DNA of 64,000 nucleotides, from positions 64,054-128,053 of IMG/VR virus record IMGVR_UViG_2930337131_000001, one strand, 5' to 3'. Below the pieces are notes generated by a model. The model was not told the origin of the DNA. It made no database searches and worked only from the letters and a program-made list of their open reading frames with translations. How positions within the stretch are numbered: the first letter of the stretch is position 1; every line of letters starts with the position of its first letter. Shown here piece by piece: positions 26,344 to 46,807 of this stretch. A program made the position numbers and the translations under genes. Source of the DNA: a virus. Its lineage: Duplodnaviria; Caudoviricetes.

Positions 26344-29300
26344 GTGTCGTCCTTCAACCTGGACGAGCGGGAGAAGCGCAGGCAGTTCGCCACCTACTTC
26401 AAAGAGCTCGAGGACCGGATCGCCAACCTCGAGCGGACCAACCAGCTCAACAACGCGAGCATCGAGGGCGGCGCCCTCGACATCTACGACGAGGACGGTG
26501 CCCTCAAGGGCTCCGTCGGCGTGCAGGACGACGGCACGGTCGCCCTGGTCCCCCACCCGGAGAACACCGACCCGCCCCCCACACCGACCGCACCGACCGT
26601 CGACTCCGCCCTGGCAGGGCTGGACATCACATGGTCCGGCCAGTGGGCCAACTCCGAGACCGCGCCCAACGACTTCGCCCTGGTCCAGGTCCACGTCGGC
26701 ACACCCGCCGACTTCACCCCGAACGCCGCCACCCAGGTCTCGCAGATCAACGACGTGACCGGCGGCAAGACGACCGTGCACGTCGAGGGCTACGACCCCG
26801 TGTGGGTGCGCCTGGTCGCGGTGAACACCGCGGCGCTGACAGGTGATCCGTCGGACGCGGTGCAGGGGCAGGCGAGGCAGGCCGTCAGCCAGGACCTGAT
26901 CGACAACATCATCACGGACGTCAAGATCGCGAACGAGGCGATCACCGAGGCCAAGATCGCGCTGTCGGCTGTGACCAGCGACAAGATTGCGGCCGGCTCG
27001 GTGAACGAGCTGCTCCTGGCCGACGACGCGGTCACCGCGGCGAAGCTCGCGGCCGCTTCCGTGGGGACGGTTGCCCTCGCCGATGGGGCGGTGCTGGCGG
27101 AAAAGCTCGCCGACAACGCGGTCACGCAGTCCAAGGTGGCGGCGAACGCGGTCACGGAACTCGCCCTCGCGAACTCGGCGGTCACCTCGGCGAAGGTGGC
27201 CGTGGGCGCGATCGACTCCACGAGGATCGCGGACGCGGCCGTCACGGCAGTGAAGATCGGGCAGAACGCGGTCACCGCGGCGAAGCTAGCCGACGGCGCC
27301 GTGGGCGCGCTGGCCCTGGCGGACTCCGCGGTCACGGCGGCGAAGGTCGCCGTCAACGCGATCGACTCCACGAAGATCACGGACGCGGCCGTGACAGCGG
27401 CAAAGATCGGCGCGGCCGCAGTCACCACGGGCAAGCTCGCCGCCCAGGCCGTCACGCTCGCCAACCTGTCCGGGGCGCTCGCCGACGTCGCCTCCCAGCG
27501 CTGGGTCGACACGATGGGCGACCCGTCCACCTGGACGGTGGCCGCCCTCAGCACCGGCGGCGCCTTCGACTTCCTCACCGGCGTCACCGACGCCCAGACC
27601 GGACAGACCGTCGGCCAGGCCACCGGATTCGCCCGGCTGCGCGGCAACACCCTGATCCCGTACGACCCCGACGTCCTCTATCGCATCTCCGCCCGGGTCC
27701 GGATGCCGCAGGCCGGCACCTCCGACGCGGTCTATGTCGGCGTCCTCGGCATCGGCGCGGACGGCGTGACGCTGGTCAACCGCGACGGCTCCAACTCCGT
27801 GAACAGCCACTACTACCCGGCCGCGTCGGGGAAGGCCGTCGCGAACACGGACGGCTGGGTCACGGTCATCGGGTTCATGAAGGGCCGGGCGGCCTCGGGT
27901 GTCTCAGGCAGCGCCGGCCCGAACAACGACCCCCGCTCCCCGGGCCTGGTGAACGCGGGCGTGCGGTTCATCAGCCCGTACATCTGGCTCAACTACAACC
28001 AGCAGTCCAGCGGGTCCTCAAAGATGCAGATGGACTACGTCGCGATCGAGGCCCTGAAGACCGGCGTGGTCGACACGATCAACCTGTCGTCCGGCGCGGT
28101 CACGGCCCCGGCCATCGCGACGGACGCTGTGATCGCCGGGAAGATCGCGGCCGACGCCATCACCGCGCGAGAACTCGCGGCGAACTCGGTCACGGCCGCG
28201 GAGTTGTCCGCCGGATCGGTCACGGCGGCCGCCATTGCGGCGAACACCATCACGGCCGGGCAGCTCGCCGCGAACTCCGTCACGGCGGCGCAGATAGCCG
28301 CGGGCAGCGTGCAGACGGCGGCCCTGGCCGCGGACGCGGTGGCGGCCGGGAAGATCGCGGCTGACGCGGTCACCGCGCGGGAGCTGGCCGCGAACTCGGT
28401 CACGGCCGCGGAGCTGTCCGCCGGGTCCGTCACGGCGGCCGCCATCGCGGCGGGAACCATCACGGCCGGACAACTGGCCGCGAACTCCGTCACGGCGACG
28501 CAGATAGCTGCCGGGGCGGTGCAGGCCGGAGCCCTGGCCGCGGACGCCGTGGCGGCCGGAAAGATCGCGGCGGACGCAGTCACCGCGCGGGAGCTCGCGG
28601 CGTCCTCCGTCACGGCATCGGAGCTCTCCGCGGGGTCCGTCACGGCCAACGCCATCGCGGCCGGGTCGGTCACCACCGACAAGCTGACCGTCGCGGGCGG
28701 CGCCAATCTCATGTCCGACCCCTCGTTCGAGGGAGCGTTCAGCGCCGCCCTCGTCGCCGGCAGCAACAACTTCTCCATCGACACGATCGGAAACGGGTCC
28801 GCCAAGTCCCTCAAGCTGAACGCAGTTGCCGGAGCTGCCACCACCAAGTCGCAGATGATCACTCGGGTGCCGATCCTCGCCGGTGATCAGCTCTATCTCG
28901 CGTTCGACTACCTGGCCTCCAGCGACTACACCAGCACTGCCACCCCGAAGTTCTACGCCCGGTGGGAGGACTCCACCGGGACAACGATCGGCTACGGCGT
29001 GGCAGCGGCCTCCCCGCCCGTCCTCGGCGGCAGCACGTGGAACCGGCCCACCGCCACCGTCACCGCCCCCGCCGGGACCGTGCAGGCATCCATCTGGGCG
29101 GAATCCTTCAATGCCTCGGCCGGAACCCTTTGGTTCGACAACATCGCCGTTCGCCCGGTCGTGGCGGGCGTGCAGATCGCCGACGGTGCGATCACCACGC
29201 CCAAGATGGTCGCCGGGTCCATCCAGGGCGACCGGATCGCGGTCAACACCCTGAACGCCGACCGCATCGTGTCCGGCTCGATTACTACGAGCCAGCTCAA

Positions 29301-31857
29301 CGTCACCACCGCGGCGAGCGTGCTGCAGAAGTTCTACGACGTCGGCGCGGACGCCGGGAAGTGGCGCACCGGCGGCTCGAGCACCACCACGGTCACCACC
29401 CCCTCGAACCTGGCCTCGGTCCAGGTGGCCGATGCCCAGGCCGGCGGATCGGTCATGCGCGCGGTCGGCGGAGTCGTTGCCGCCTGGCGGCCGGATGTGC
29501 TCATCCCGTTCGACCCGAACATCCTCTATCGGGTCTCCGTCGTCGCCCGGCAGACCGTCGCGGGCAGCGACACCTCGCAGCAGCGGCTCTACATGGGCGT
29601 GGCCGGCGTGGCAGCGGACGGCACCACCCTGGTCAACACCACCGGCGCAGCCTCCGCAGCCACCCAGCACTACATCGCCGCGGCCTCGCAGAACCTCACC
29701 GCGGGCAGCGGATGGCAGCGCTTCACCGGCTACCTCAAGGGCTATGCGGCGACCGGCGCCACCGCCACCCAGGGCGCCACCACCTCGCCCACCACGCCGG
29801 GCGTGCTCCACGCGAACGCCCGCTACATAACGCCGCTGTTCTACCTGAACTACAGCGGCGGGACCGGCACCGCCGAGATCAGCTCCATCACGGTCGAAGT
29901 CATCGAGACCGGCGCAGTGCAGACCGTCAACATCGCCGATGGCGCCATCACGGCGAACAAGATCCTGGCCAACACCATCACGGCCGACAAGATCGTCGGC
30001 CTGACCATCACGGGCGACAAGCTCGCGGCGAACACCATCACGGCCGACAAGATCCAAGCCCTGTCCATCACGGCGGCGCAGCTCGCGGCGAACTCGGTCA
30101 CGGCGACGGCCATTCAGGCGGGCTCCATCGACGCCACCCACATCAAGGCTGGGGCAATTACCGCCGACCGGCTGTCCCTCGGCACTGACGGCAACCTCAT
30201 CGCCGACCCCAGCTTCGAGGGCGCCGTCTCCGTCGGTCGGGCGTCCACTAGTACGTACTGGTCCATCGTCAGCCCCGGCAACAACACCCCGCAGGCCCTT
30301 CAGGTGAATGCGGCCAACGCCACGGCCATCACCCGATCCCTGACGCTGGCCACGGTGCCAGGGATGCCCGGTCAAAAGCTGTGGCTGTCCATCGACTACT
30401 ACGCCTCCACCGACTGGAACGGCCTCCGGATCAGCTTCTACGGGCAGTGGCTGGACGCGGCCAGCAACATCCTCGGATACAGCACCATCACCACCGGCGA
30501 CAACGCGGCCGTCAAGGGCGCATGGACCACCCTGAGCGGCGTTCCCGACGATGCCGCCCCCGCTGGCACCACCCAGCTCCGCATCGCGTGCTCCACCACC
30601 AACTCCAGCGCGGGCACCGTCCAGTTCGACAACACGACCGCGCGCATCGTCCTCGCCTCCGGTTTTGCTGGGGCCCGCTCCGAGATCAGCCCTCGAGGCC
30701 TGCAGCTCTTTGACGACAACGGCGAGGAAGCCGTCTCTCTCCTGACCGGCCGGCCCAACTACCTGACGCTCAGCTCCGACGGACTGCCCGTCGCGACGAT
30801 CGACCAGACCGGCGGCGCCTACTTCCAGAGCCTGGCGGTCGCCGACACCCTCACCGTGGGCGGGGACCCCTTGACCGCGGTCCTCGACCAGCGGCCGCGC
30901 GGAATCATCTCGTACGGCGTGCCCGCCACGACTGTGACGGCCACCGGCACAGAGCTCGGCTACTTCGAGCTGCCCGTCACGGTCGAGTCCGGCCGGATGT
31001 ACCGCATCAAGTTCCACGCGACCGCGGATTTCGACAACAACAACGATGGAGAGGCCCGCCTGTACCTCCGCGACGGCGGGGCTTCCACGCCCTCGATCTC
31101 GTCGACGCTGCGCCAGCACGTCATCCTCACCCCGTCACACACGGGCCGGTACTGGACGGCAGAGCTCGAGTACATCGTTCCTGGAAGCACCCTCGGCGCC
31201 GGCCTGCACCGATTCCTGCTCTCCTTCGAGAACTCCGGCAGCACCAGCGGTACGACGTTCGAACTGGGGTTGGCCACCACCGGCCGGAGTTGCGTCTTCT
31301 ACGCCGAGGACATCGGCCCGGAGATCCCGAAGACCGGCGGATACAACACCGGAGGTGGCACGGCCACCCCGCCTGTCGTCCAGTACACCAAGACCTACTC
31401 CGCGACCTGGTCCGGGTCGTACTCGAACCGTGGCTCGTACAACAGCTACTACGGCAACTCCTGTTATCAGGGCTACTACAGCTCCACGAACGGCATGCAG
31501 GCGAGCCTCATCGGCTTCTCGTCGTCCCTGGGCACCGACCTGTCGGGCGCGACCATCCAGAAGGCCGAGGTCTATCTGTATTTCGATCACTGGTACTACA
31601 ACAACGGCGGTAGCGCCGTGATCAAGGCGCACAGCTTCACGTCCCGCCCGTCCACGTTCTCCTCCGATCCCGAGTCCAAGACGATCTCTTGGGCGAAGAA
31701 CGAGGGCAAGTGGGTCGACATCACATCGGTGTTCGACTCCACGAAGTGGCGGGGCATTGCCCTGGACCCAAACAGCTCGAGCCTGACCTACTACGGCCGC
31801 GCGCGTGGCTACGGCCAGACCAACCCCCCGAAGCTCCGCGTCACCTACACGAAGTGA
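26344..31857 (+). CDS. Long tail fibre / receptor-binding protein
   Basis: 1837 aa with many AVTAAKIA/NSVTA decapeptide repeats and duplicated CBM-like modules (NL.SDPSFEG; IP.DP..LYR). Confidence 0.85.
28135..28680 (+). repeat. ~210-bp tandem repeat (x2.6) in the tail fibre
   Basis: GCCGG(G/A)AAGATCGCGGC recurs at 28135, 28345 and 28555. Confidence 0.8.
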
Positions 31858-33185: not shown

Positions 33186-33454
33186 CTGAGGTGGTCGCAC
33201 GACTACCGCGGAGACGCGTTCGAGGCTCCGGTCAAGGGTTCTTGGGACTGACAACACACCTCTAGTTCAGATGGGAGTGTTCCTCTTCCCGTGGTCGCCC
33301 TTGATCACACAGGAGTCGATTAACCGGGTGCGTGTAGAGCACTCGGGGCCGGGGAGCGGATGCTCCTGCGACGAACCGGCCTCGTCCTTCGCGACCGTGC
33401 GGCCGCCTCGCCTTGTCTCAGCAGGCACCACCCAGGGACCGAGAGCACGGCCCT
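33186..33454 (+). ncRNA. Candidate structured RNA / long 5' leader
   Basis: Nested complementary segments: TCAAGGG/CCCTTGA, GGGA/TCCC, AACAC/GTGTT, CCGGGTGC/GCACTCGG, GGAGC/GCTCC, GACGA/TCGTC, GGTCGC/GCGACC and CTGAG/CTCAG. Confidence 0.4.
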
Positions 33455-33479
33455 ACCCGAACCGGAGGAACACTCGCCC

Positions 33480-34301
33480 ATGAGCATCGCGCAGAAGGTC
33501 GCCGCCGAGACCGGATACCTGTCCCGGATGTCCGATGAGACGTTCATGGACGTCGTCGTCGCCTACGTCATGGGGGACACGGACCCGCGCGTACACCGGG
33601 CCGTCCAGGGCGAGGCACTCGGATCGCCGCGGCTCGCATCCCGCACTCTCGACGCCCTCGAGACCGCCCTGCGCCGCGCGCGGCAGTACAACCCCCTCCA
33701 GGAGGGCGAGACCAAGCGGGAGCAGCAGGCCCGCATCGCGCCGTGGCGGGCGAGGATCCAGGCCGCGATGGGCCCGCTCCAGGACGTCGTCGACGACCTG
33801 GCCCACGAGCACGCGAAGCAGTTGGCCGCCCTCGACGACGATTCGTTCACCGACCGGTTCACCGACTTCGTCCTCGGCGAGCCTGCCCCCGCGCCGACGT
33901 CCCAGCGGATTGAGGCTCTCGGCTTCCGGTCACACAGAGTGGCTAAGAGGGCGGCGGCACTCTGCCGCCTGATGGACGAGGACCCGGGCCAGTTCCTGCC
34001 CGAGCCCGCTCCGGGCGAGAGCCGCACCGCGCGGCAGAAGCGGGTCGAGGAGTTCCGCCGGCGCGTGGAGGCCGAGGCCGCGTTCCTGCGGTACGGCGTC
34101 CAGTACGCGGAGGCGCGCCAGGGCCGGATGCCCAGCGAACCGAACCACCGGCTGCAGGCGCTCAAGCTCCTCGGCCAGGCCCACCCCCAGGAGCTGCTCG
34201 AGCTCCTGCGCCGGGTCCGCGGCGAGGCCCGCGCCGCCAAGCAGGAAGCGCGCCGCGACGCCCGGGACGTTCGGCGCGCGGCCCAGACCGGCGCGCGCTG
34301 A
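33480..34301 (+). CDS. Hypothetical helical protein (273 aa)
   Basis: GGAGG RBS before ATG 33480; internal duplication (MSDETFMDVV / LDDDSFTDRF). Confidence 0.7.
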   Translation: MSIAQKVAAETGYLSRMSDETFMDVVVAYVMGDTDPRVHRAVQGEALGSPRLASRTLDALETALRRARQYNPLQEGETKREQQARIAPWRARIQAAMGPLQDVVDDLAHEHAKQLAALDDDSFTDRFTDFVLGEPAPAPTSQRIEALGFRSHRVAKRAAALCRLMDEDPGQFLPEPAPGESRTARQKRVEEFRRRVEAEAAFLRYGVQYAEARQGRMPSEPNHRLQALKLLGQAHPQELLELLRRVRGEARAAKQEARRDARDVRRAAQTGAR

Positions 34302-35074
34302 GGCGCGCTCCTGGCCGACCGCTCCACCTTCAAGGGCGCGCCCGATGGCGCGCCCTTCTCCATGTCCGGGCGCGCCTGGGCACCGCGCCGCGCGCGCGGA
34401 CTCGGCGCGGTCCTCGGCGCGCGGCCGGCCGGTGGGCGCGCCGCGCGCCACCTATCGCGCGGATGGGCGCGCGCGCTCGAGCGGTCAGGGGCGCGGTAGT
34501 CCTGCGCGCCGTTCCGGAGCCCGCGCGGGGCTCCCCCCGGGGCCGCGCTCGAGGGCGCGCCACGGCCAGGCGCGGGGCGCGCCCTCGAGAAAGGGCAGGT
34601 CAGATGGCGCGCGCCCTGGCGCGCTTGCTGTGGCGCGCGTGCGCGCGGTGGCCATGGCGCGGGCGCGCGGCGCGGTCGGATCGGGCGCGCGCGCGATCGT
34701 CAGGAGGGCGCGCGGCGCGGCGCGGGTATGGCGCGCGCTCACTGGATCGGCGCGCTTGGGCGCGCGCCCGGCGGCGCGCCTGGGTCCGCGCGCGCGGCGC
34801 GGTACGGGATGGCGCGCGCTCCCTCTGGGCGCGCCTGGGCGCGCGCGGATCGGCGCGCTTGGGGAGCGGCGCGGGCGCGCCTGGCAGGCGCGCCCAGGGG
34901 AAGGCGCGCAGTGCCTGGGCGCGCGCTTGGGGGAGGGACGGCGCGGCGCGCGGGCGCGCCTCGAGGTGATGTGACGTGACGAGAGAAGGGGGAGCGGCGC
35001 GCGCCGTGGAAGCGCGCCCGAGGGGGCCGGGCGCGCGTCACGTCACGTCACGTCACTGTCCGGCGGGCGCGCCC
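34273..35074. repeat. Non-coding GCGCGC-dense array
   Basis: About 40 GCGCGC-containing blocks by hand count in ~800 bp between convergent genes, with GTGAC/GTCAC pentamer repeats at the right end. Confidence 0.8.
34332..34357. terminator. Perfect 11-bp stem-loop
   Basis: AAGGGCGCGCC-cgat-GGCGCGCCCTT. Confidence 0.55.
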
Positions 35075-36768
35075 TCGAAGTACGGCGCGAACCGCCTGGC
35101 GAGCTTCGGGTCGACCGGCGGGGCCTTCCGGTAGTACTCGGCGAGCTCCGTCTCTCCAGCCGCCTCGAGGTACTCGACGAGTCCCGGGCGGTGGCCGAGG
35201 ACGTAGTTCCGCAGCTCGGGCAGCTCCGGGTCGCCGGTCTCGGAGATCGGCCCCAGGTGCTCACCCTTAGTCATCATCAGGAGTCGGGCCTGAACCTCGG
35301 CCTCCTCGTACAGGGCCTTGAATGCGAGCTCCTCGCCCCTGTTCCTCCGGGAGGCCGGACGCGCGGCGGCGGGGGGCGGGACGTCCTGGGGCTCCTCGGC
35401 CTGGCTGGTCTCCTCCGGGTTCTCGTCGATCGGGGGCTCCTCGTGCTCCGGGTCCGGCGGCGGGGGCGCGGAGTCGTACTCGGCCGGCGGCTCCGGCTCC
35501 TCGTGGGCCTGGTGCTCGCGGGCCTGCTCCGGCCGCTGGTCCTGCGGGGCCGGGGCGGTGCTCGGTGCCTGCTGGGGCGGCTGGGTTCCCTGCCCGGCGG
35601 CGGCCGCCTCCGCCTTCTTCTTGGCCTGCTCCCTGACTGCGGTCAGGGCGCGGGTGATCAGGGCGTCGGCGTTCATCTCCCCCCACAGCTTCGTGCGGGT
35701 GGGAATCCGCTCGAGGGTCCGCTTGCCCCACGTCTCGCGGATGTCGACCAGGCGCGCCTCCGGATCGGTCGGGTCGTTGAGCGCCTGGTGCACGAGACTG
35801 ACGGCCCCCTGGCCGGTGAGCTCGGATGACTGGGGCGCATGCTGCTGGGGCTGGGCTCCCTGCTGGGGCGGGCGCTGCTGAGACTGGTTCGGCCCCTGCT
35901 GCCGCTGGTTCTGCTGCTGCGGCGGCCGCTCCCCCTGCTCGTCCAGGTACGCGTCCGGCCGGGTCTCGGTGACCTGGCGGGTGGCGGCGGCCTCGTGGAA
36001 ACCCATGCGGCGGAGCAGGCTGTCGATGCTGAAGTCCCGGTACCGCTCCGTCTCGCCGGGCTTCATCTCCCAGTGCAGCGTGCGGACCCCCGTCAGGTAG
36101 GCGTCGCCCAGGCCGTGCAGTTCCACGATGGCGTCGACGGCGGCCGGAAGGTTCTTCTCGGCCTTGATCTTTCGGGTGGTGTTCCGGGTGGGCTTGTCGT
36201 TCTCGAACGCGGTCACGATCTCCTGGCGGGCGATCATCACCACGGGGCCGGAGTGCCGGCGGAGCAGCCACAGGAACTCGCCCCACCGGTCCTTCGCCCG
36301 GTTCCACAGGTCGGCGTCGATGACGACCGGGTCGTCCAGCGAGGGCCCGCGGCGCTTGTTCTCCTGCGCCTTCCGCACGGCGCGGCGGCGCGCGTACAGG
36401 GCCTGCTCGTCGCCGAGCATCTCCCACAGGTTCGAGCCGTTGTCGACGACGATCATGTTGGGCTTACCGTCGACACGGGGCTGCGCGACGATCCAGCGGA
36501 CGGCGTCGAGGATGTCCTGATAGGTGCCGTCGTGCTCGACGATCTCGTACCGGGCCCCGGGGATCTTGCCGTAGTAGTCCGCGGTGCCCTCGGACCCACC
36601 GATCTCGAGCCAGTACGTCATGCCGATGAGGTCGGAGCGCGAGCCGACAGCGGCCTCGTAGCTCTTGCCGCACTTCTCGGGCCCGCACAGCAGGATGAAC
36701 GGCGGGTTGGGGAGGCAAGTCGGCTTCCGGGACGTACGGGCGCGCTGCGGCGCGGTGATACCAGGCAT
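35053..36768 (-). CDS. Sak4/AAA_24-like ATPase (recombination/annealing) with long Gln/Pro-rich extension
   Basis: Walker A GPEKCGKS, Walker B MIVVDN and VVMIAR; GAGG RBS. Confidence 0.7.
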   Translation of the reverse strand: MPGITAPQRARTSRKPTCLPNPPFILLCGPEKCGKSYEAAVGSRSDLIGMTYWLEIGGSEGTADYYGKIPGARYEIVEHDGTYQDILDAVRWIVAQPRVDGKPNMIVVDNGSNLWEMLGDEQALYARRRAVRKAQENKRRGPSLDDPVVIDADLWNRAKDRWGEFLWLLRRHSGPVVMIARQEIVTAFENDKPTRNTTRKIKAEKNLPAAVDAIVELHGLGDAYLTGVRTLHWEMKPGETERYRDFSIDSLLRRMGFHEAAATRQVTETRPDAYLDEQGERPPQQQNQRQQGPNQSQQRPPQQGAQPQQHAPQSSELTGQGAVSLVHQALNDPTDPEARLVDIRETWGKRTLERIPTRTKLWGEMNADALITRALTAVREQAKKKAEAAAAGQGTQPPQQAPSTAPAPQDQRPEQAREHQAHEEPEPPAEYDSAPPPPDPEHEEPPIDENPEETSQAEEPQDVPPPAAARPASRRNRGEELAFKALYEEAEVQARLLMMTKGEHLGPISETGDPELPELRNYVLGHRPGLVEYLEAAGETELAEYYRKAPPVDPKLARRFAPYFEGAPAGQ

Positions 36769-36885
36769 CGGTGTTCCTCGCTTCGTGGTCTCCCCGGGTG
36801 CTCTCCCGCGGAGGATGCAACGGCGAAGGGGTTAACCTCTCGCCGTTGTCCCTGGCTTACTATTCTACCCGCTTGGTGGGGTAGA

Positions 36886-37299
36886 TCAATGCCGGTTCAG
36901 CAGATCCGCGACGGGAGTTGCAAGTTTCGGGTCCTGGTCCTCGCGGTGCCGCTTATACCAGGCGTCGAGGGCCTCGAGCCCGTCGGCCGCGGCCGCCTTC
37001 TGGTCCTCGGGCATGGCTTCCCACTCGGCGACTGCGTCCTCGTACTCGCCGCGGACCGTGTCCGGGTCCTGGCGATTGAGGGCCTCCGTGATCTCCTGCC
37101 ATGAGGCGCCGCCCAGGGCCTCGGCGAGGACGACGCGGTCGACGATCTCGTTGGCCAACTGGCGAAGCCGGCGGGCTTGCAGGATGCGGTCGGCCGGGCT
37201 GGTGGTCTCGGCGGTGGTCGCGACTGTCTGCCGGGCGAGGTCGGACAGGTCGCGGGCTGCGCGGGCGGTGGTGATCCGGGCCAGGATCTCCGGTTCCAT
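36886..37299 (-). CDS. Hypothetical protein (HTH-like GASWQEITEALN)
   Basis: 137-aa ORF with typical codon bias. Confidence 0.6.
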   Translation of the reverse strand: MEPEILARITTARAARDLSDLARQTVATTAETTSPADRILQARRLRQLANEIVDRVVLAEALGGASWQEITEALNRQDPDTVRGEYEDAVAEWEAMPEDQKAAAADGLEALDAWYKRHREDQDPKLATPVADLLNRH

Positions 37300-37377
37300 G
37301 GAAGGGTCCGATCATGCGGGCGGCGGGCGCCCCAGGTCGGGGGCCCGCCGCTTCGGTACGGGTAGAGGCAGGATGCC

Positions 37378-38619
37378 TTACGAGCCGGTTGCCGTCAGCG
37401 CCTGGTCGAACGCAGCGAAGACAGCATCGACGGTCGCGGGCTGCGGGAGGAGGACCCCCTTCTGCGCGGCGTACTCCTTGATGATGCGGCCGCGTGTCCT
37501 GCGGCCGCTCCCTTCGTGCTGGCCGAGGACCTCCGCAATCGCGGCGCCGGTCAAAGGCCCGTCGAAGACGTCGCGGTGTCCACCGTCGATGACCTCGGCG
37601 ATGATCGCGCGCAGCTCCTCCTCCGTGCTCCACGCGGGGACCACGTACGGCTGGGGCGCGCCCTGCGCCTCTCCGGCCGGGGCGGCGGGTGCGGGCTCCG
37701 GCGCGGCCATCGGCTCGAGAGCCATGGTCGGCTGCGCGGGAACGGTGGCCGTGACCCGGCGCGGCTTCGGGGCAGCGGCCGGAGCGACCGCGGCCGGAGC
37801 CGGTGCGAGAGCTGCAGCGGGCGGGAGCACCGGGGCCGCGGCGGGGGCCGGAGCCTCGAGCGCCTCGACCTCGACCGGCTCAGCGAAGATGCCCGTGGGG
37901 TCGATGCCCGCCGCGCGCAGACCGGCCGCGGCCGTCTCCGCGAGGGGGACGCCGGCGCTGACGAGCTGCAGCGGGAGCAGCGAAGCCACTGGCGCCTTCC
38001 GGCGCCAGGCTCGACCGAACCGGCCGCGGAGCTGCGCCTGGTAGACGAGTCGCTCCTGCTCGAGCTTGAGGACCGTGTCGTACGAGGTGAGTTCCCACAG
38101 CTTCATGCGGCGCCACAGCAGGAAGGTGGGCAGCGGAGAGAGGACCCAGCGCGCCCACCGAACCTTGTCCATCTGACGGCGGCGGCCGGTGGCAGCGCCG
38201 ATACGGACGGCGTAGGTGTGCGTAGCGATCTCGGAGACGATGACCCAGAGCAGGGCCATCGCTCCGTGCGCGATCTTGGACCAGAGGGATTCGCCGGACG
38301 CGACGTTCAACGCGCAGGACGTCAGGCTCAGCACCCAGGGGACGAGCCGCGCCCACCACAGCGGCATCCCCGTGCGGATCAGGAACAGGTGGGCCCCGGT
38401 GAACACGGGGATAGCGGAGTCGATGGCGGTGGGCAGGACCCACGGCTCGGTGAAACCCCAGTCTTCGGCTGCTTTGGACACGGCGTCGAATGATGCGAAG
38501 AAGCCCAGTCCGCCGACGGCGGCTCCGCCAACTGCGGTCAGGCCCGCGCCGAAGCGCTCCCAACGGCTGAGCGGCGGGACGCCGGAGTCGTCCTCGCGGG
38601 TATGGGGGAACTGGCTCAC
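37378..38619 (-). CDS. DUF2637-family membrane protein (Streptomyces plasmid/AICE spread-associated type)
   Basis: Four TM helices, then RWARWVLSPLPTFLLWRRMKLWELTSY, an Ala/Pro linker and a C-terminal HTH. Confidence 0.75.
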   Translation of the reverse strand: MSQFPHTREDDSGVPPLSRWERFGAGLTAVGGAAVGGLGFFASFDAVSKAAEDWGFTEPWVLPTAIDSAIPVFTGAHLFLIRTGMPLWWARLVPWVLSLTSCALNVASGESLWSKIAHGAMALLWVIVSEIATHTYAVRIGAATGRRRQMDKVRWARWVLSPLPTFLLWRRMKLWELTSYDTVLKLEQERLVYQAQLRGRFGRAWRRKAPVASLLPLQLVSAGVPLAETAAAGLRAAGIDPTGIFAEPVEVEALEAPAPAAAPVLPPAAALAPAPAAVAPAAAPKPRRVTATVPAQPTMALEPMAAPEPAPAAPAGEAQGAPQPYVVPAWSTEEELRAIIAEVIDGGHRDVFDGPLTGAAIAEVLGQHEGSGRRTRGRIIKEYAAQKGVLLPQPATVDAVFAAFDQALTATGS

Positions 38620-38771
38620 GGACACCTTTCCTCTCGTTCGGGTCTCCCCGGTCGGCTTATGCTCGTGGCCTTCCGGGTCGACCAAACGATATAGCGTCTT
38701 CCGCCTGTTGTGCCTGAATCAGTTCCCACAGTGCGTCAGGGACGCGGTCATACCGGGTGTTTTGGGGCCGG

Positions 38772-39611
38772 TCACCAGTCGAGGGGCTCCGCCGGCTTCC
38801 GCCGGTCGGGGCCGACGATCCGAGCGACGTGCGCGGAGGACTCGAGCCGGGACAGCAGCCGCTCCCCCAGGATGTCGACCACGCCCAGGCCCGGACTGTC
38901 GGGCGTCCGGCGGCTGCGCAGGTTCGTGGTGTACGCCGTGGGCCGCCCGGCCGAGATGCGGGCGTCGATCAGGTCGATGGTCTCCCGCCGTGCGAACTCC
39001 GTGGCGGTCATGTCCATCTCTCCGCACAGTTCGTCGAGGATCAGCAGCTCGCACGTTACGAACTTCTTGCGGACCTCCCACGCCTTCAAGTTGTGCGGGG
39101 CCGAGTCCGGGCGTCGCCACGTCAGGTACGTCGCGTGCTTGATCATCAGGGTGTCCACGCCCGCGATGACGGCCTCGTTGCCCAGGGCGAACGCCGCGGC
39201 GGTCTTCCCGCTGCCGATGTTCCCCGGGATGATCATGTTCAGGGTCTCCGGGCGGGAGCCGGACCGCTTCGCCTCCACCAGGGAGTGAAGCCAGTTCTGC
39301 AGGGTCTGCGGCTTCTGGTTCTTGTCCAGCTTGAGGGGGCCGGTGGTGAACCGGAAGCCGAGGTACTCCTGGTGGGCCGCGTCCTCGACGCTCCGCTCCC
39401 ATGCGAGTCGTCGCGCGTGAGCCTTCGGCACGGCCGTGTCCTCCCAGAGCTCTATCTCTGATCTGTCGGTGCGGCGGTCGGGGACGCCGAGCTGGGACAT
39501 GTCGGCGCCACCGCGGCGCAGGATCGCGAACATGTGGTCGGTCACGGCGCCTGCCAGGTTCAGGCCGCGCTCGGGGCCCGGGGTCACCGGGGCATCCACC
39601 GTGAGGGACAT
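38772..39611 (-). CDS. DnaC/IstB-like ATPase (helicase loader)
   Basis: GNIGSGKT, LLILDELCGE, AYTTN and GERLLSRL motifs. Confidence 0.8.
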   Translation of the reverse strand: MSLTVDAPVTPGPERGLNLAGAVTDHMFAILRRGGADMSQLGVPDRRTDRSEIELWEDTAVPKAHARRLAWERSVEDAAHQEYLGFRFTTGPLKLDKNQKPQTLQNWLHSLVEAKRSGSRPETLNMIIPGNIGSGKTAAAFALGNEAVIAGVDTLMIKHATYLTWRRPDSAPHNLKAWEVRKKFVTCELLILDELCGEMDMTATEFARRETIDLIDARISAGRPTAYTTNLRSRRTPDSPGLGVVDILGERLLSRLESSAHVARIVGPDRRKPAEPLDW

Positions 39612-39616
39612 CGAGA

Positions 39617-40612
39617 TCACACTCCCTGCGTGCGGTTGACCACGCCGAACGTGGCGTCGTCGGAGTCGTCGTGTTCGGGGGCTTCGGGGGTGCCGGGTGG
39701 GGTCTCGCCCTGCTTGCCCCAGGTCGCCGAGTCGCTGTACGGAACGGCGCCGTTGGAGCGGGTCGGGGTGATGTGGTTGGTGACGACGCCCAGGGCGTCC
39801 TGCCACTGCTGCGCGCTGGGCAGGTGCTTACGCGCGCGGCGGAGGGCGTCCGCGCACTGGCGCTGCGTGTAGCCCGCTTCCAGGGCCTTCTTCACCATGC
39901 CGCGCATAGCGATGTAGCCGTTGGTCTTGCCGACGTACTTGCCCAGGTGCTTCTCAGCGTCCGCCCACCACCACGTGGCGACCTTCTCGGCCGCTTCGTC
40001 GATGGCCTTCTTCTCCGCGGCCTTCTTGTCCGCCGCGGCCTGCTTCTCCGCGTCGTCGGCGGCCTTCTGCTCCGGGGTCCGGCGGGTGCGCCGCTTGGGG
40101 GCGGCCGGCGGCTCCTCGGCGGCCGCGGGCTCCTCCTCCGGGGCAGGGGGCTCCTCGTCGCGGGGGTCGGGCTCGAACCCGTCGCTGCCCAGGGTGCCGT
40201 CCGGGTACTCGACGAGGAACGTGCCGTCCTCCTGCTCGATGACGGGGACGGCCGGGTCCTTCTGCGAGCTGAAGATGGCGTGGTCGGCGGCCCACTGGGG
40301 AACGGGGTACTCGGCGACTGACGTGCCCATCACGACCTTGCCGGTGCGCAGACGGCGGCGCTCGAGGCGGTAATACCCCTTCGCGGCGAGCTCGCGCAGC
40401 GCGGTACGGACGGCCTCGCGGCCCTCCCGACCCTCGCCCTTGGAGAGCTGGTCGGAGCGGACCTGCCACCCCTCCTTCTGGTCCAACAGGTAGGTGAGCA
40501 GGCCGAGGGCGCGGAAGCTGATGCTCGTGTCCCGGGCGGTCGTTGACTCGACTCGCACGTGGTAGACGCGCCGGGCGACCCGCACCCCTGTGGGATCGGA
40601 CAGGCGGCTCAT
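39617..40612 (-). CDS. Phage replication initiator (N-terminal wHTH)
   Basis: ISFRALGLLTYLL...GREAVRTALRELAAKGY; upstream of the loader gene. Confidence 0.75.
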   Translation of the reverse strand: MSRLSDPTGVRVARRVYHVRVESTTARDTSISFRALGLLTYLLDQKEGWQVRSDQLSKGEGREGREAVRTALRELAAKGYYRLERRRLRTGKVVMGTSVAEYPVPQWAADHAIFSSQKDPAVPVIEQEDGTFLVEYPDGTLGSDGFEPDPRDEEPPAPEEEPAAAEEPPAAPKRRTRRTPEQKAADDAEKQAAADKKAAEKKAIDEAAEKVATWWWADAEKHLGKYVGKTNGYIAMRGMVKKALEAGYTQRQCADALRRARKHLPSAQQWQDALGVVTNHITPTRSNGAVPYSDSATWGKQGETPPGTPEAPEHDDSDDATFGVVNRTQGV

Positions 40613-40887
40613 GCGGATGCCTCGCTGGGGGTGTCGTTGGTCAGGCGGAAGTCGGTGCGCTTGGAGCGGCGGCCGGACTCGTTGCTCAGGTAGCGGTACC
40701 GGCGCTCGGCCATGCCCGCGTTGCGCAACTCGGTGACGGCGCTGCGGACCTGGTGGGAGTTCAGGCCCAGGCCGGTGTAGATGGACGCGAGGTCGACCCA
40801 CTCGCCGTCGGGGTGGAGGGCGAGCTGGAAGAGAACACGGTGCGCGCGGTCGGACAGGCGCCGGGGGCGGGTCTGCGTGGTGGTCAT
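40609..40887 (-). CDS. Small winged-HTH protein
   Basis: LSDRAHRVLFQL...LGLNSHQVRSAVTELRNAGMAER. Confidence 0.65.
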   Translation of the reverse strand: MTTTQTRPRRLSDRAHRVLFQLALHPDGEWVDLASIYTGLGLNSHQVRSAVTELRNAGMAERRYRYLSNESGRRSKRTDFRLTNDTPSEASA

Positions 40888-40946
40888 GGTGCTGGTCCCT
40901 GGGAAGAGGGGCCCGGCCGCGAGGGGCCGGACCCGGGCGGCTGTCG

Positions 40947-41552
40947 TCACTCGTCGCGCGCGCCGGGCTGCGCCTTGGGCAGCAGCTCCGGCGTCTCCCG
41001 CAGTTCGTCGTCGAGGTCACCGCGCCGGTAGGCGGCCAGCAGAGCGGCCTTGCCTATCGGCTGCTTCTTGAAGGTCTTCCAGGTCCAGGTGACGGTGCCG
41101 GTGGGCTTCCCGCCCGGCACGAACTTGAGACCGGGGATGAGCTCACCGGACCGCGAGTCGAAGATGGCGCCCGTCTCTGGGTCGCGCTGGGCGTGCCGGA
41201 GAACGGCCGTCTCGAACGACTTCTTCCGGACGATGACGACGTCGTACTCGCCCTTCTCCTCCGCGTACTCGTCGAACGCGGCTTCGTCGGCGATCTCGAA
41301 CCGGTCGCGGGTCTTGTTGACCTTGTAGTGACCGACCTCTTCGCCGCCGACGGTGATGGTGAGGTCCGACTGCTTACGCTCGAGGAACGCCTGGACGAGG
41401 GGGTCCTTCGGGGCGTTCACCTTCGGGGTGATTATCGCCGCCTGGTGTTCCGTCATGGCGCGGGCGATTGCCCCGACGAGCCCGAGAGTATGCAGGTCAG
41501 GCCCGGAGTCCGACTCATCGGCCGGGACGGCGTCGGCAACGTCGTGCGACAT
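40947..41552 (-). CDS. Hypothetical phage protein
   Basis: GAGAGG RBS; DPETGAIF...GELIPGL motif common in phage DNA-metabolism proteins. Confidence 0.7.
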   Translation of the reverse strand: MSHDVADAVPADESDSGPDLHTLGLVGAIARAMTEHQAAIITPKVNAPKDPLVQAFLERKQSDLTITVGGEEVGHYKVNKTRDRFEIADEAAFDEYAEEKGEYDVVIVRKKSFETAVLRHAQRDPETGAIFDSRSGELIPGLKFVPGGKPTGTVTWTWKTFKKQPIGKAALLAAYRRGDLDDELRETPELLPKAQPGARDE

Positions 41553-42635: not shown

Positions 42636-43280
42636 ATGTCCACCCGACGCAAGGCACGCCGGCCCGAGGGCCGCAGCGGTCGCCCACGCCTGCTCTCCGA
42701 AGAGGTCGAGTCCCGTCTCGTCGCGGCCTCCCGCACGGGCGTAGCCGTCGAGCTGGCTGCCGAGATGGCCGGCATCTCTCGCTCCACGTTCCTGGCGTGG
42801 ATGGCCCGCGGCCGCGCCGAGGTCGACGCCCGTGAGGAAGGCAAGAAGCCCGACCCGGCCGAGGAGGAGTACGCGGCCCTGTTCGAGAAGGTCCGCACCG
42901 CCCGTGCCACCGCGGGCGCGCGCGCCATGATGAACATTCGCAGGATCGCGGACGGCGGCATCGTCACCAAGATCACCACCCGCAAGTTCCGCGACTCTGT
43001 CACCGGCGAGATCGTCGAGGAGACCGTCGAGGACCGCACGCCCCCGGACTGGCGCGCTGACGCCTGGTACCTCGAGCGGCAACACCGCGACGCCTACGGC
43101 AAGGACGCGACGCTCGCCCTCGAAATCACCGGCCTCGGTGACGTCCCGGCCGGCGCGGACGACGGGGCCGTCGACCTGGCCGCGCTCGCCGAACGCCTGG
43201 ACCGCAGCCTGTTCTCGGTCGAGTACCCGCCGGAGCTCGAGGACGGCAGCGTCGTTGACGCCGAGGTGGTCGACGAGTGA
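42636..43280 (+). CDS. Terminase small subunit-like HTH protein
   Basis: GRPRLL...AAEMAGISRSTFLAW...DWRADAWYLER. Confidence 0.6.
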   Translation: MSTRRKARRPEGRSGRPRLLSEEVESRLVAASRTGVAVELAAEMAGISRSTFLAWMARGRAEVDAREEGKKPDPAEEEYAALFEKVRTARATAGARAMMNIRRIADGGIVTKITTRKFRDSVTGEIVEETVEDRTPPDWRADAWYLERQHRDAYGKDATLALEITGLGDVPAGADDGAVDLAALAERLDRSLFSVEYPPELEDGSVVDAEVVDE

Positions 43281-45037: not shown

Positions 45038-46807
45038 TCAGGCCGCGGCGGGCACGGTCCAGGCCGACGGCAGGATGAGCAAGTCGTCGGCGTCGGCCTG
45101 GCCCTCGTCGTCGGTCGCCTTCTGCTCCTGGCCGGGAGGGTTGGCGGACTCCGAGTTGGTGTCCTGCCCCGGCGGTGTGGCCCCTTCGGCGGGCGTCTCC
45201 ACTGGGGCCGGGGTCTCCTCCACCGGCGGCGCGGGGGTCTCCTCCACCGGCGTGTCGGTGACCGGGGGCGGCGTCTCCTCGTCCGGCGGGGTGGCCGTCC
45301 CGTCCGGCTCGCTCGGCACGGGGTCCGCGCTCGGCGGCGGCGTCGTGTCTGCCGGCGGCGGGGTCGTCCCCTCCGGCTGGCTCGGCGTGGGGTCCGCGGT
45401 CGGCGGCGGGGTCGTCTCGACCGGCGGCGGGGTCGTCTCTACCGGCGGTGGGGTCGTCCCCTCCGGCTGGCTCGGCGTGGGGTCCGCGGTCGGCGGCGGG
45501 GTCGTCTCGACCGGCGGCGGGGTCGTCTGCGCGGGCGGGGTGGTGGTCGTGTCCGTCGGCGGCGTCGGCGGCGTCGTCGGGGTGCTCGGCGTGGACGGGG
45601 TCGACGTCGGTGTGGTGGTGGGCGTGGACGGGGCCGTCGGGGTGGAAGGCGTGGTCGTCTGCACGGGCGGCGGCGTGGTCGTCTGCGCCGGCGGCTCGGG
45701 CGTTGTCACCAGCACCACACCGCCACCAGTGGCGGCCGGGGGCCGCTCAATGCCGATGGCGAGTGCCACGATGTCGTCACCGCCGGGGCCGCCGTACACG
45801 GGCGTCGCGTCCACCAGGCCGAGCACCAGGCGGGCCGCGACCATCGACGGCGCGTCCGACGTCGCTACCGCGGGTTGGGCGATGATCTGGTGCACTTCCT
45901 GGCTGTTCAGGCCGAGGGTGCCCAGGGTGAGGGCTGCGAGCCGCGGCGGGAGCGGGGTGGACCCGCCCATCACGTTCGGGCCCGCGTCCTTGTCCGCCTG
46001 CTGCAGCAGCTTCATGTACTCGGCGATGCGCGCCTGGTCGGTGCCCCACAGCACGTACCGGCCGTGCACCTTCATGTCCTGGTACAGCTCCTGCGACCCG
46101 TCCTGACGTGCCCATGTGCGGGCATAGTCGGCGTCGTAGAAGATGCGCAGGCCGATCTGCTCCTTGCCGTAGGAGAACGTGAAGATCGTACTGTCCGGGC
46201 CGGTCGCGGCCTTGGTCGACATCACCATGCCGTCGGCATCGGTGCACTCGGCCTCGAGCGCACTCACCGGGTTGCACTCGATCTTGCTCGCGCCGGAGAA
46301 ATAGTCGAACTTGTCGTCGGTGAACGGGGCGTTCTCGACCTTGGTCCCGGCCGCGTCCGGCGTGACGTCCGGCGCGCTGGCCTTCGCGTGCACGGGCGCG
46401 TCGTCGACGATGTTCGTGTACCGGCCCAGGGCCCAGCTCGCCGCCAGCGCAGGGAGCAGTGCGGCGACGACGACCGCCTTGCGCCGCCGCTTGCCCGCGG
46501 GCGGGAGCTTCTCCGTGGCGACGTCGTCCTTGAGGTCGACCGGCGGGCGCTCGACGCTCGGCGGGGCCGGGGCGTTCAGCCCCAGCATGTCGTCGAGGTC
46601 CTTGAACTCCGGGCACTGCTCCCGGATCATCCGCTCGGCGGCCTCCCGGGTGATCCCGGGCAGCACGTTGAGCACGTTGTCCACGGCCCGGGTGAAGGTC
46701 TGCCCCTGGCCCATGAACAGCGTGCGCACACCGTGCATCCTGAACAGCGCCGCGTCGGCCGGGAAGTCGCCGACGACGATGTCGATTTTCTCCGCCGGGC
46801 TGCTCAC
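45038..46807 (-). CDS. Single-TM protein with extracellular domain and long Pro/Thr-rich tail
   Basis: KRRRK followed by a TM segment; ETTPPP repeats; 90-bp DNA duplication at 45360/45450. Confidence 0.7.
   Translation of the reverse strand: MSSPAEKIDIVVGDFPADAALFRMHGVRTLFMGQGQTFTRAVDNVLNVLPGITREAAERMIREQCPEFKDLDDMLGLNAPAPPSVERPPVDLKDDVATEKLPPAGKRRRKAVVVAALLPALAASWALGRYTNIVDDAPVHAKASAPDVTPDAAGTKVENAPFTDDKFDYFSGASKIECNPVSALEAECTDADGMVMSTKAATGPDSTIFTFSYGKEQIGLRIFYDADYARTWARQDGSQELYQDMKVHGRYVLWGTDQARIAEYMKLLQQADKDAGPNVMGGSTPLPPRLAALTLGTLGLNSQEVHQIIAQPAVATSDAPSMVAARLVLGLVDATPVYGGPGGDDIVALAIGIERPPAATGGGVVLVTTPEPPAQTTTPPPVQTTTPSTPTAPSTPTTTPTSTPSTPSTPTTPPTPPTDTTTTPPAQTTPPPVETTPPPTADPTPSQPEGTTPPPVETTPPPVETTPPPTADPTPSQPEGTTPPPADTTPPPSADPVPSEPDGTATPPDEETPPPVTDTPVEETPAPPVEETPAPVETPAEGATPPGQDTNSESANPPGQEQKATDDEGQADADDLLILPSAWTVPAAA

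Follow-up and report, generated by a model that had tools for sequence, protein, structure and literature searches.

Clustered short words serve as cis sites in several well-described systems. P1 oriR/incA and lambda ori are iteron arrays, the classical iteron repeat unit being about 17–22 nt long, and oriC carries two opposed arrays of DnaA boxes; the incA array of P1 is dispensable. The pac site of P1 is cut between flanking hexamer repeats, that of SPP1 is divided into pacL, pacC and pacR, and clusters of methylation sites function at both P1 pac and oriC. In Streptomyces, TraB binds 8-bp TRS repeats in the clt loci of plasmids. Among actinobacteriophages, PMC7157519 describes both a ParB, that of RedRock, which binds arrays of eight 8-bp repeats, and a region of about 600 bp in cluster A mycobacteriophages that lies next to parABS, expresses a non-coding RNA and is needed for replication. 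In the KfrA operator of plasmid RA3 an all-helical protein binds a set of five 9-bp repeats (PMC7783346).

The locus described here belongs to an element related to Streptomyces phage Gilgamesh and to the 125–135 kb Streptomyces plasmid-prophages, and we studied it in a 64,000-nt stretch of a virus genome, called the window below. Like the iteron replicons and oriC, it clusters a short, lineage-specific word beside replication genes; its arms are opposed in one class of relatives (class E), as in oriC, and it is dispensable in one natural deletion, as is P1 incA. Unlike iteron replicons, it has a core of only 7–8 nt in about 40 copies and no A+T-rich unwinding element, it lies 3.9 kb beyond the initiator-like gene with four other genes between, it has no second cluster of its word elsewhere, and no covariation with the initiator-like protein is seen. 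With the KfrA operator it shares a neighbouring gene for an all-helical protein, but searches found this protein (gp76-like) to resemble no known DNA binder in sequence or fold, and the likeness can be offered as an analogy only.

The tract and its neighbours

The tract sits at the point where the two main gene blocks converge, as the initial annotation had it and as the codon-position analysis agrees. Its parts and neighbours, in window coordinates, are these:

33480–34301, plus strand: gp76-like orphan gene, 273 aa, ending the rightward structural/tail block (open reading frame and codon-position GC; homologue of Gilgamesh gp76)
34302–35052, no strand: whole non-coding array, 751 nt, 82% GC, between two converging stop codons
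34332–34357, plus strand: terminator-like hairpin AAGGGCGCGCC-CGAT-GGCGCGCCCTT, two inverted motif copies (from the sequence and an alignment of seven class A tracts)
34358–34585, no strand: left arm, with GGCGCGC 9 times and GCGCGCC 8 times, near parity
34586–34604, plus strand: conserved core GAGAAAGG-GCAGGTCA-GA with a motif copy on either side, GCAGGTCA at 34595–34602
34605–34964, no strand: right arm, with GGCGCGC 22 times versus GCGCGCC 9 times
34965–35057, no strand: 5-nt units arranged as an inverted repeat, (GTGAY)n ... (CGTCA)4, around a loop of about 55 nt that contains three copies of the motif
35053–36768, minus strand: ATPase gene, 571 aa, with which the leftward replication block ends
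36886–41552, minus strand: replication-type module (137-aa orphan, DUF2637 membrane protein, DnaC/IstB-like loader, HTH replication-initiator-like protein, Mu Gam-like protein)

The non-coding tract had originally been placed at 34273–35074, a start that falls within the last 29 nt of the gp76-like gene, whose final 54 nt contain three GCGCGC blocks; the true gap is 34302–35052, and judged by its sequence this GGCGCGC-packed interval between two stop codons is indeed non-coding. Three open reading frames of 100–209 aa lie inside it and none passes the codon-position GC filter, in keeping with the earlier view that the tract holds no real gene. Across the tract, a related metagenome contig differs from the window by indels of 1 and 2 nt. 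Within these 751 nt there are 54 copies of GCGCGC, against 219 in the remaining 127 kb of the 128-kb genome, and with the whole genome (128,053 nt, 71.3% GC) as reference GCGCGC is enriched 39-fold and GGCGCGC 68-fold. Seen against the window, the interval 34273–35074 holds 54 of 146 copies of GCGCGC (67 per kb inside, 1.5 per kb outside), 34 of 65 of GGCGCGC and 12 of 22 of GGCGCGCC; when the window is cut into 500-nt bins, four or more GCGCGC occur in just the two that begin at 34001 and 34501, and no motif cluster of more than four sites was found outside the tract anywhere in the genome.

Other parts of that description also stood up well. The hand count of about 40 blocks becomes 42 when overlaps are merged (spanning 34248–35072, with 41 inside 34273–35074), the longest strictly alternating run is the reported 11 nt (34685–34695), and TRF gives nothing beyond local partial periods of 10–79 nt, so the tract is no tandem array. 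Nor does GC content explain the motif density, since the observed counts lie above every one of 1000 first-order Markov simulations of the tract composition, both for GCGCGC (54 observed; simulated mean 16.7, maximum 36) and for GGCGCGC (34 observed; simulated mean 5.7, maximum 16). The suspected periodicity of 10–11 bp was not borne out: a period of 10.75–11.5 nt is among the four top peaks in eight of nine arrays, always under the 95% null, which no period beats in any of the nine, and helical phasing is weak. An assembly artefact, the other worry raised at the outset, can be set aside, and the tract is genuine sequence. A contig that an independent assembler made from what is probably the source run is identical throughout it, and an unrelated metagenome, from a rhizosphere, has an 11.3-kb contig that covers 33449–35865 with 184 other letters and 26 gaps.

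Searches of Pfam, PHROGs and NCBIfam gave the gp76-like protein no match above cut-off and no DNA-binding assignment, and its profile found nothing below E 0.17 among PDB sequences. Its AF2 model (pLDDT 90.6) is all helical, and fold searches with it gave nothing significant (Foldseek against PDB, best E 0.087; BFVD, best E 0.053; VIA wide, best Z 5.6), so that it is confidently predicted to be all helical, in a model without a known DNA-binding fold. The ATPase begins with a RecA-like/AAA_24 domain at its N-terminus; a helical middle domain that includes a beta hairpin comes next, and a disordered linker rich in P, Q and E leads to a helical bundle at the C-terminus. Family searches in the same three collections returned AAA_24/phrog_1366 only, and fold searches with the C-terminal half returned nothing better than E 1.4 (Foldseek) or Z 6.6 (VIA). 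The order of elements in the middle domain (helix-helix-helix-hairpin) had suggested a winged helix, an assignment that no search supported. Beyond the ATPase gene, the gene order of the replication-type module is the same in Gilgamesh and in six plasmid records.

A word that changes with lineage

The array occupies the matching gap, directly after the ATPase stop, in 45 of 50 relatives; two further loci, L013 and L042, stop short of the gap and enter none of the counts. In the Gilgamesh record it is found at 72,280–73,021. Its conservation, its layout and the switching of its motif are direct observations. The repeated word varies by lineage, with six motif classes among the relatives, and the arrays are distributed as follows:

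GGCGCGC(C): 34 relatives
CGCGCGCG: 2 relatives
GCACGC/GTGCAC: 3 relatives
GGGTACGG/CCGTACCC: 4 relatives
GATC-containing tandem units: 2 relatives

Common to the lineages is the order of terminator hairpin, left arm, core, right arm and (GTGAC)n inverted repeat, and the word in the hairpin and in the copies flanking the core switches together with that of the arms; in class E relatives (the L064 tract) the equivalent terminator-like hairpin is made from GGGCGTACCC/GGGTACGCCC. The core, GAAWnnGCAGGTCA, is at the matching position in 40 of the 50 sequences (29 exact, 11 with one mismatch) and was seen in every motif class except B and F, and the inverted repeat, which overlaps the ATPase stop codon, is kept in all motif classes. 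Motif orientation differs among classes, and the G/C skew of the arms flips between them. An excess of GGCGCGC over GCGCGCC in the right arm is found in 10 of 12 class A arrays, and in all four class E arrays the arms are opposed, the left with GGTACG 9–18 times versus CGTACC 3–4 times and the right with 0–2 versus 12–16.

The expectation that relatives would keep the motif while the spacers diverged proved half right. Over six pairwise comparisons with the window, motif columns are 70–95% identical and spacer columns 46–83%, but the word itself differs between lineages. Taken with the presence of the array in most relatives and a layout that stays constant while the motif changes, this strengthens the initial annotation's proposal of a selected multi-site platform. 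Such switching of a word within a fixed layout is what one would expect from co-evolution with a cognate binder, or from concerted evolution of an incompatibility determinant. The flanks past −2/+1 of the motif carry little information, and the conserved unit is thus 7–8 nt, which is shorter than classical iterons of 17–22 nt and in this respect speaks against iterons.

Four relatives (L014, L066, L068 and L070) have no array within 800–900 nt downstream of the ATPase gene, and a fifth, L034, has lost it with all surroundings kept, the (GTGAC)n inverted repeat included; L034 is nevertheless a plasmid-sized contig, so the array is not what sustains the plasmid form. For at least 12 loci with an array the contig is 276 kb to 10 Mb long, which means that those elements are integrated, and one scan of species-representative genomes gave 40 loci, many of them on plasmid-sized contigs. 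The loss in L034 and the integrated array-bearers fit a lytic origin or control locus. Literature searches on Streptomyces phage-plasmids (PMC13659240 among the papers), on pZL12 and on GGCGCGCC phage repeats brought up nothing about the array, and no paper naming both Gilgamesh and Streptomyces phage was found.

A candidate platform for the replication module

Our preferred reading, which we hold tentatively, is that the tract is a lineage-specific, iteron-like binding platform whose likeliest role is as a cis site for the replication module next to it. Some 40 sites with a 7–8 nt core, (G)GGCGCGC(C), would be read by a sequence-specific DNA-binding protein that the element itself encodes. 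They are arranged as two arms around the GAAWnnGCAGGTCA core, with a hairpin closing each end, and the tract would probably work either as a kind of origin or as a region that controls replication. An initiator, or a protein associated with the loader, might then assemble on the arms in many copies, much as DnaA does at the two opposed box arrays of oriC or RepA at the P1 oriR/incA iterons, and we propose that the motif changes with lineage owing to a role of these sites in determining incompatibility. That a protein binds here, which protein it would be and that it acts in replication are our inferences. The 42 blocks follow immediately on the ATPase gene, which closes a module that includes Gam-like, HTH initiator-like and DnaC-like genes.

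The A+T-richest 20-mer of the tract, in the (GTGAC)n arm, has 10 A/T and the richest 40-mer 14, so no A+T-rich unwinding stretch was found there, and scans of the tract for sigma-70-type promoters and for simple terminators came up blank. GCAGGTCA occurs genome-wide 10 times on the plus strand and twice on the minus strand (2.2 expected per strand) and recurs on one strand at other intergenic places, in some cases with A-rich sequence upstream, a pattern that suggests a promoter or regulator site. GC skew tracks gene direction and is uninformative on replication. Both gene blocks face the tract, so that forks leaving an origin here would meet transcription head-on, a point against an origin. 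The lack of an A+T-rich stretch, the weak helical phasing and the differing motif orientation among classes also count against this reading.

Which protein might read the array? Twelve neighbourhood proteins were compared by pairwise and sliding-window identity in classes C, D and E, and none separates cleanly by motif class; the DnaC-like, DUF2637 and FtsK-like proteins show no more than a weak fit to the classes, and class A offers no close partner for L016 in such a comparison. Among the 50 relatives there is no pair of close kin with different motif classes. Identities of the HTH initiator-like protein (C–C 0.60, C–D 0.58–0.62, D–D 0.68–0.90) have little power, because the motif classes coincide with clades. 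ParAB and FtsK-like readers are disfavoured on evidence given below.

Competing readings

Less likely than a replication site is a new kind of phage cis element, a re-programmable 'barcode' platform whose 5-nt heart (CGCGC, CGTGC, CGTAC, CGATC) would have been re-specified stepwise in different lineages. Its reader would fall outside known DNA-binding families, perhaps the gp76-like protein or the middle domain of the ATPase, and the element would be neither origin, centromere nor pac; it might be a terminus or insulator organising the converging halves of the 128-kb genome, or a nucleation site for DNA condensation.

A pac site for a headful terminase, with small-terminase oligomers on the two arms and a cut in or near the conserved core, strikes us as unlikely. 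Short repeated words do flank a central non-repetitive segment, as in P1 and SPP1 pac, and in class E the opposition of the arms is strict. Integrated prophages retain the array and one plasmid-sized relative does without it, the class given for G000 is that of direct terminal repeats, and the Gilgamesh record begins at the large terminase gene, which is the convention for circularly permuted genomes. Against this, about 40 sites over 750 nt far exceed the known pac sites in size and copy number, and the small-terminase homologue (about 42645–43274) is 7.6 kb off, not in or beside the array, and is 77–85% identical across classes C and D despite their different motifs.

Also unlikely, in our view, is a structural element or insulator that lacks a reader of its own, a very G+C-rich buffer with alternating purine-pyrimidine runs between converging operons, which might stop read-through from both sides, absorb supercoils or form Z-DNA or cruciforms. 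Its position at the exact convergence point with hairpins at both ends would suit such a role, and alternating runs of at least 6 nt make up 31–51% of 10 of 11 arrays versus 9.9% genome-wide, exceeding all 200 dinucleotide shuffles in those 10, the A/T-containing class D among them. In the L016 array, however, alternation equals the dinucleotide expectation, and transitions within the motif would preserve it anyway. The window tract folds as a single strand far better than its shuffles (z −11.5), but L016 (z +1.7) and L019 (z −2.8) do not repeat this; since folding is not conserved, the duplex sequence is what is kept, and a hairpin element, or the cruciform-prone one suggested by the initial annotation, is not supported. 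The blank terminator scan is no help either, and a physical role leaves unexplained both the homogenisation of one word per lineage and the conserved, non-repetitive core.

We think it quite improbable that the tract is an operator or roadblock cluster for an immunity repressor or other regulator, with motif class as immunity group and with read-through or a core promoter silenced during lysogeny. Lineage-specific words would fit the divergence of repressors and operators, and the recurrence of GCAGGTCA hints at a promoter or regulator site, but the arm motif is clustered nowhere else in five whole genomes, promoters included, no promoter was found by the sigma-70-type scan, and no repressor has been identified.

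A centromere for the ParA partner, as first suggested, or a clt-like loading site for an FtsK/TraB-like translocase is very doubtful. The tract shares with actinobacteriophage parABS its actinobacterial hosts, extrachromosomal prophages and a cis array of short repeats on the 8-nt scale, so that motif length fits the RedRock ParB repeats as well as those of TraB. Yet parA (56031–56873) lies 21 kb away with its own two copies of CCGATACGGGC (at 55977 and 55995), the array has five times more copies and is kept in integrated relatives too, and ParAB cassettes are bordered by palindromes or direct repeats of their own, which bear no relation to the array, and have been swapped independently of the motif: a same-motif plasmid pair has ParA 29% and ParB 36% identical, a different-motif pair 64% and 58%. 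Like clt, the array is non-coding, belongs to the same host genus and lies at the 3′ end of an ATPase gene, but that ATPase is RecA-like/AAA_24, not FtsK-like. The FtsK-like gene itself is distant. Of 22 records, 7 gave no hit for it at E ≤ 1e-20, and each of these 7 has an array; it is present in the genome of the array-less L034, and in two class A elements it is just 37% identical to the window's copy.

More improbable still is a non-coding RNA gene or RNA-primed origin comparable to the prophage origins of cluster A mycobacteriophages. The core is a possible promoter, but no Rfam family matches the tract (the best, a miRNA, is at chance level, E 0.25), RNA structure is not conserved, and the G/C skew of the arms flips between classes. 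A single RNA run gave just short pieces at low depth, which are neutral on this point. Weakest of all, and hardly credible, is the early idea of a decoy or sensor array of restriction/methylation sites: each class has a short palindromic core, and GCGC/CGCG, GTGCAC, GTAC and GATC are typical type II targets, but outside the tract the words are at maximal-order Markov expectation in five genomes (GGCGCGCC, for example, 32 observed versus 33.3 expected), a C5 methylase domain occurs in two of five records and an N6/N4 methylase in none, and no DNA methylase family is shared.

Elements of this family, 120–135 kb long, are common in Streptomyces, where they carry partition, toxin-antitoxin and metabolic genes. 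Among their non-coding features the array stands out most, and no other part of them has a word that is re-specified by lineage. Identifying its reader would yield a new pair for DNA recognition whose specificity varies in nature, a factor that probably determines incompatibility or host takeover in the family, and a replicon or control part for Streptomyces genetics; should the array be a lytic origin or a pac site, it would supply the missing cis site of Gilgamesh-type phages. Returning to replication, our preferred reading, we add that a separate iteron cluster at 49888–50010, inside an HTH_36 gene, could be a site for replication in the plasmid mode.

A motif array where two gene blocks meet

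The 128,053-nt IMG/VR record, of which the window is the second half, is complete, with direct terminal repeats and a G+C content of 71.3%. Its rightward structural and tail gene block meets a leftward block at a non-coding gap, whose neighbours have counterparts in Streptomyces phage Gilgamesh (129 kb):

33480-34301 (+): gp76-like gene, left neighbour (Gilgamesh gp76, annotated as hypothetical protein)
34302-35052: non-coding gap holding the array, between the stops of the two flanking ORFs
35053-36768 (-): ATPase, 571 aa, right neighbour (Gilgamesh gp77, annotated as AAA-ATPase; weak AAA_24 match; phrog_1366)
next beyond (-): orphan, 137 aa
next beyond (-): DUF2637 membrane protein
next beyond (-): DnaC/IstB-like loader
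next beyond (-): HTH protein, matching replication-initiator PHROGs
next beyond (-): Mu Gam-like protein

The initial annotation had described a non-coding tract at this convergence point with about 40 GCGCGC blocks, alternating runs of up to 11 nt and a density unmatched elsewhere, and the description has held up well. Within 34273-35074 there are 54 copies of GCGCGC (146 in the entire window), 34 of GGCGCGC (65) and 12 of GGCGCGCC (22); merging the motif hits gives 42 blocks from 34248 to 35072, the longest alternating run is indeed 11 nt, and a genome-wide scan found no other cluster exceeding 4 motif sites. The enrichment over the remaining genome is 39-fold for GCGCGC and 68-fold for GGCGCGC, and both counts exceed those in all of 1000 simulations with the tract's dinucleotide content (maxima of 36 and 16). 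Copies are flanked by G at -2 and -1 and by C or G at +1, so that the word reads (G)GGCGCGC(C). The three ORFs within the gap (100-209 aa) all fail the codon-position G+C filter that real genes pass. Nor is the tract an assembly artefact, since two further contigs span it: a second assembler's contig from the probable source run, with zero differences, and a contig of 11.3 kb belonging to an unrelated rhizosphere metagenome, which covers 33449-35865 with 184 substituted nucleotides and 26 gaps and has 1- and 2-nt indels among its differences inside the tract.

A constant place and a changing word

The key result is that the array keeps its place while its word differs between lineages. We examined the DNA past the ATPase stop in 50 relatives whose sequence reaches far enough (phage and plasmid collections gave 7, IMG/VR 4 and species-representative genomes 39; loci L013 and L042, where the sequence stops short of the gap, were left out), and an array is present in 45 of them.

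Arrays of the relatives, grouped by repeated word
Class A: GGCGCGC(C); 34 relatives, L050 counted in
Class C: CGCGCGCG; 2 relatives, L017 and L018
Class D: GCACGC with GTGCAC; 3 relatives, L019, L065 and L067
Class E: GGGTACGG/CCGTACCC; 4 relatives, L062, L063, L064 and L069
Classes B and F: GATC-containing tandem units; 2 relatives, L016 (class B) and L049

In L050 (11626-13000) an insertion of 1.3 kb, which contains an ORF of 355 aa, stands between the hairpin region and the array and displaces the latter from the ATPase stop. No array lies past this stop in 5 of the 50 (L034, L014, L066, L068 and L070; for the last four this covers the 800-900 nt downstream of the ATPase gene); in L034 (11713-11834), a 126-kb S. 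ardesiacus contig, a deletion has removed the array together with two thirds of gp76 at its C-terminal end, and the (GTGAC)n hairpin is retained. In our reading, the word hearts CGCGC, CGTGC and CGTAC form a series joined by single transitions.

A common layout runs, in window orientation, from the gp76 stop through a hairpin, left arm, core and right arm to an inverted repeat:

Hairpin 3' of the gp76 stop: two inverted motif copies, then CCCTTC
Core: GAAWnnGCAGGTCA, with a motif copy at either side
Inverted repeat: 5-nt GTGAC units, its right arm overlapping the ATPase stop

The core recurs at the equivalent position in 40 of 50 sequences, with the window among them, and spans classes A, C, D and E; 29 copies match exactly and 11 differ at one base, and while a one-mismatch hit taken alone could be due to chance, the exact hits agree in position and in the upstream GAAW. 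Both the hairpin and the core-flanking copies carry each lineage's own word, which has therefore been homogenised throughout the tract. Orientation is patterned too: the arms are opposed in all four class E arrays, GGCGCGC is favoured in the right arm of 10 of 12 class A arrays with the left arm balanced, and one orientation prevails in class D. Across seven aligned class A tracts, motif-block columns are 70-95% identical to the window and spacer columns 46-83%, a contrast somewhat inflated because the aligner may prefer matching G+C blocks; within this class motifs are better kept than spacers, a check that the initial annotation had proposed. GCAGGTCA, which is shared with the core, occurs genome-wide in 10 copies on the + strand and 2 on the - strand (2.2 expected per strand), including window positions 9070, 34595 and 41492 and positions 23386 and 24205 of the whole record; several copies are intergenic with A-rich upstream sequence, for example 97 nt before ORF 9167-10528, and a promoter or regulator site is possible.

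As a cis-element of this widespread Streptomyces phage-plasmid family, the array is real, far from random and maintained in evolution. Its place, layout, core, homogenised words and word-over-spacer conservation look like five marks of a selected multi-site protein-binding platform co-evolving with an element-encoded binder, much as first proposed, and the array is probably a new variant of iteron-like platform. Such a binder would assemble on many sites, with words and binder changing together, and re-specification of this kind is characteristic of incompatibility determinants such as iterons and centromeres. Among described systems, those closest to it are iteron arrays, Streptomyces clt loci, pac sites and the 8-bp-repeat parS arrays of actinobacteriophage RedRock (PMC7157519); the array has a principle in common with each, but each also has, where testable, at least one defining feature that the array lacks. 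No published account of this array was found in a search mostly at record level.

Candidate roles and the search for a reader

An origin-type or replication-control site is our tentative first choice, because the evidence speaks against ParAB and FtsK and because the replication module ends at the array. Against it, the word core is only 7-8 nt, the tract has no A+T-rich stretch, the genes on both sides point toward it, and no covariation with the initiator-like protein was seen in a comparison of little power. A pac site, ranked second, seems unlikely: two arms flank the core as arms flank the central segment of P1 and SPP1 pac, and the Gilgamesh record begins at the large terminase gene, but the small-terminase homologue lies 7.6 kb from the array and keeps 77-85% identity between two motif classes. 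Just as doubtful, and ranked third, is a structural or insulating element without a reader, which would suit the convergent genes and the alternating purine-pyrimidine runs enriched in 10 of 11 arrays but leaves the homogenised words and the core unexplained. A hairpin or cruciform element as such, the latter among the proposals of the initial annotation, is disfavoured, since the strong folding of the window (z of -11.5 against shuffles) is absent in L016 (+1.7) and mild in L019 (-2.8). An operator or roadblock cluster is less likely than these three.

ParAB or FtsK sites are more improbable still. The ParA partner had been suggested as binder, but the cassette is remote from the array:

56031-56873: parA, 21 kb from the array
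56870-57826: parA partner, 318 aa

ParAB type is also independent of the word: the two class C plasmids share a word and have ParA only 29% and ParB 36% identical, whereas one class C and one class E plasmid, with different words, reach 64% and 58%. The relatives' unrelated cassettes share one location among the tail genes (NZ_CP108441, 49.7-52.3 kb; NZ_CP122459, 105.3-107.6 kb; NZ_CP070374, 34.1-37.1 kb), each with its own flanking palindromes (TCTTTACGNCGTAAAGA; CGTGTCTCACNNGTGAGACACG), and partition systems look to be freely exchanged as cassettes. Upstream of parA, the 11-nt repeat CCGATACGGGC has two direct copies 18 nt apart (55977-56005), unique in the 128-kb genome, and is likely an operator or mini-centromere of that cassette. 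As for a clt-like site, an FtsK-like protein was found in 15 of 22 records searched and all 7 lacking it bear arrays; the array-less L034 genome has one, and copies in two class A elements are 37% identical to the window's.

An RNA-based origin would be more surprising again, and the tract has no Rfam match. Least probable of all is a methylation or restriction array: the decoy first suggested sits poorly with words at maximal-order Markov expectation outside the tract in five genomes, where C5-methylase domains occur in 2 of 5 records and N6/N4 methylases in none.

Arrays persist in integrated elements too: at least 12 of the loci that bear one are on contigs measuring from 276 kb to 10 Mb, among them a complete chromosome. 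Because the array is retained there and lost in the 126-kb L034 contig, we argue against a role needed for plasmid life and favour a lytic-cycle or control role. Plasmid-mode replication could instead use a candidate origin at 49888-50010, where five iteron-like GACTTGTAGTCACCCC-like copies with a period of 18-22 nt lie inside a gene, as lambda ori lies inside gene O:

49123-50532 (-): 469-aa gene holding the iteron cluster, N-terminal HTH_36 domain

The reader was not identified among the FtsK-like protein and 12 proteins of the neighbourhood, compared as whole proteins and 40-residue windows across classes C, D and E, a weak covariation test because motif class and clade go together. The DUF2637 protein alone separates classes, and barely (within-class minimum 0.73, between-class maximum 0.70), and no copy was detected in class E; the DnaC-like protein fits the motif split in class C and fails internally in class D. 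L016 (class B) is equally distant from all class A relatives. The gp76-like protein is confidently predicted (pLDDT 90.6) to be all-helical and to have a long, basic helix at its C terminus, with no fold match in structure searches. Over its N-terminal 250 residues the ATPase is similar to the protein called 'RecA-like DNA recombinase' in many mycobacteriophages; its C-terminal half is modelled as two confident domains with a disordered linker between them, neither matching a known DNA-binding fold.

The wider element

Gilgamesh matches 96% of the length of 33300-36900 at 77.8% identity; three Streptomyces plasmid records also match, two across 27-70% of the length and one over only 55 nt, and the ATPase protein search adds three plasmid records of ~130 kb each. 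Since phage portal and capsid genes occur there alongside ParA/ParB, toxin-antitoxin pairs and FtsK-like genes, these relatives are plasmid-prophages. Between portal and capsid genes lies a giant gene of ~4000 codons (57564-69560 of the whole record; its end is window 3-5507), with counterparts of 13.9 kb in Gilgamesh (gp48) and 16-19 kb in the plasmid relatives, where its annotation is DEAD/DEAH helicase family protein. Two genes contain long in-frame tandem repeats, a tail-fibre-like ORF of 1837 aa (26344-31857; units of 150-210 nt) and a 589-aa ORF (45038-46807, -; units of 21, 69 and 90 nt). A partial C5 cytosine-methylase domain lies at 15852-16577 of the whole record within an 878-aa open frame, and a related domain is present in CP109288 and not in three other plasmid relatives. 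Finally, the Gilgamesh record carries queuine tRNA-ribosyltransferase and PAPS reductase-like annotations at 101.5-104.3 kb (L021, 19505-22277), which point tentatively to 7-deazaguanine modification of the DNA, a pathway that, if real, would affect the G-rich array.
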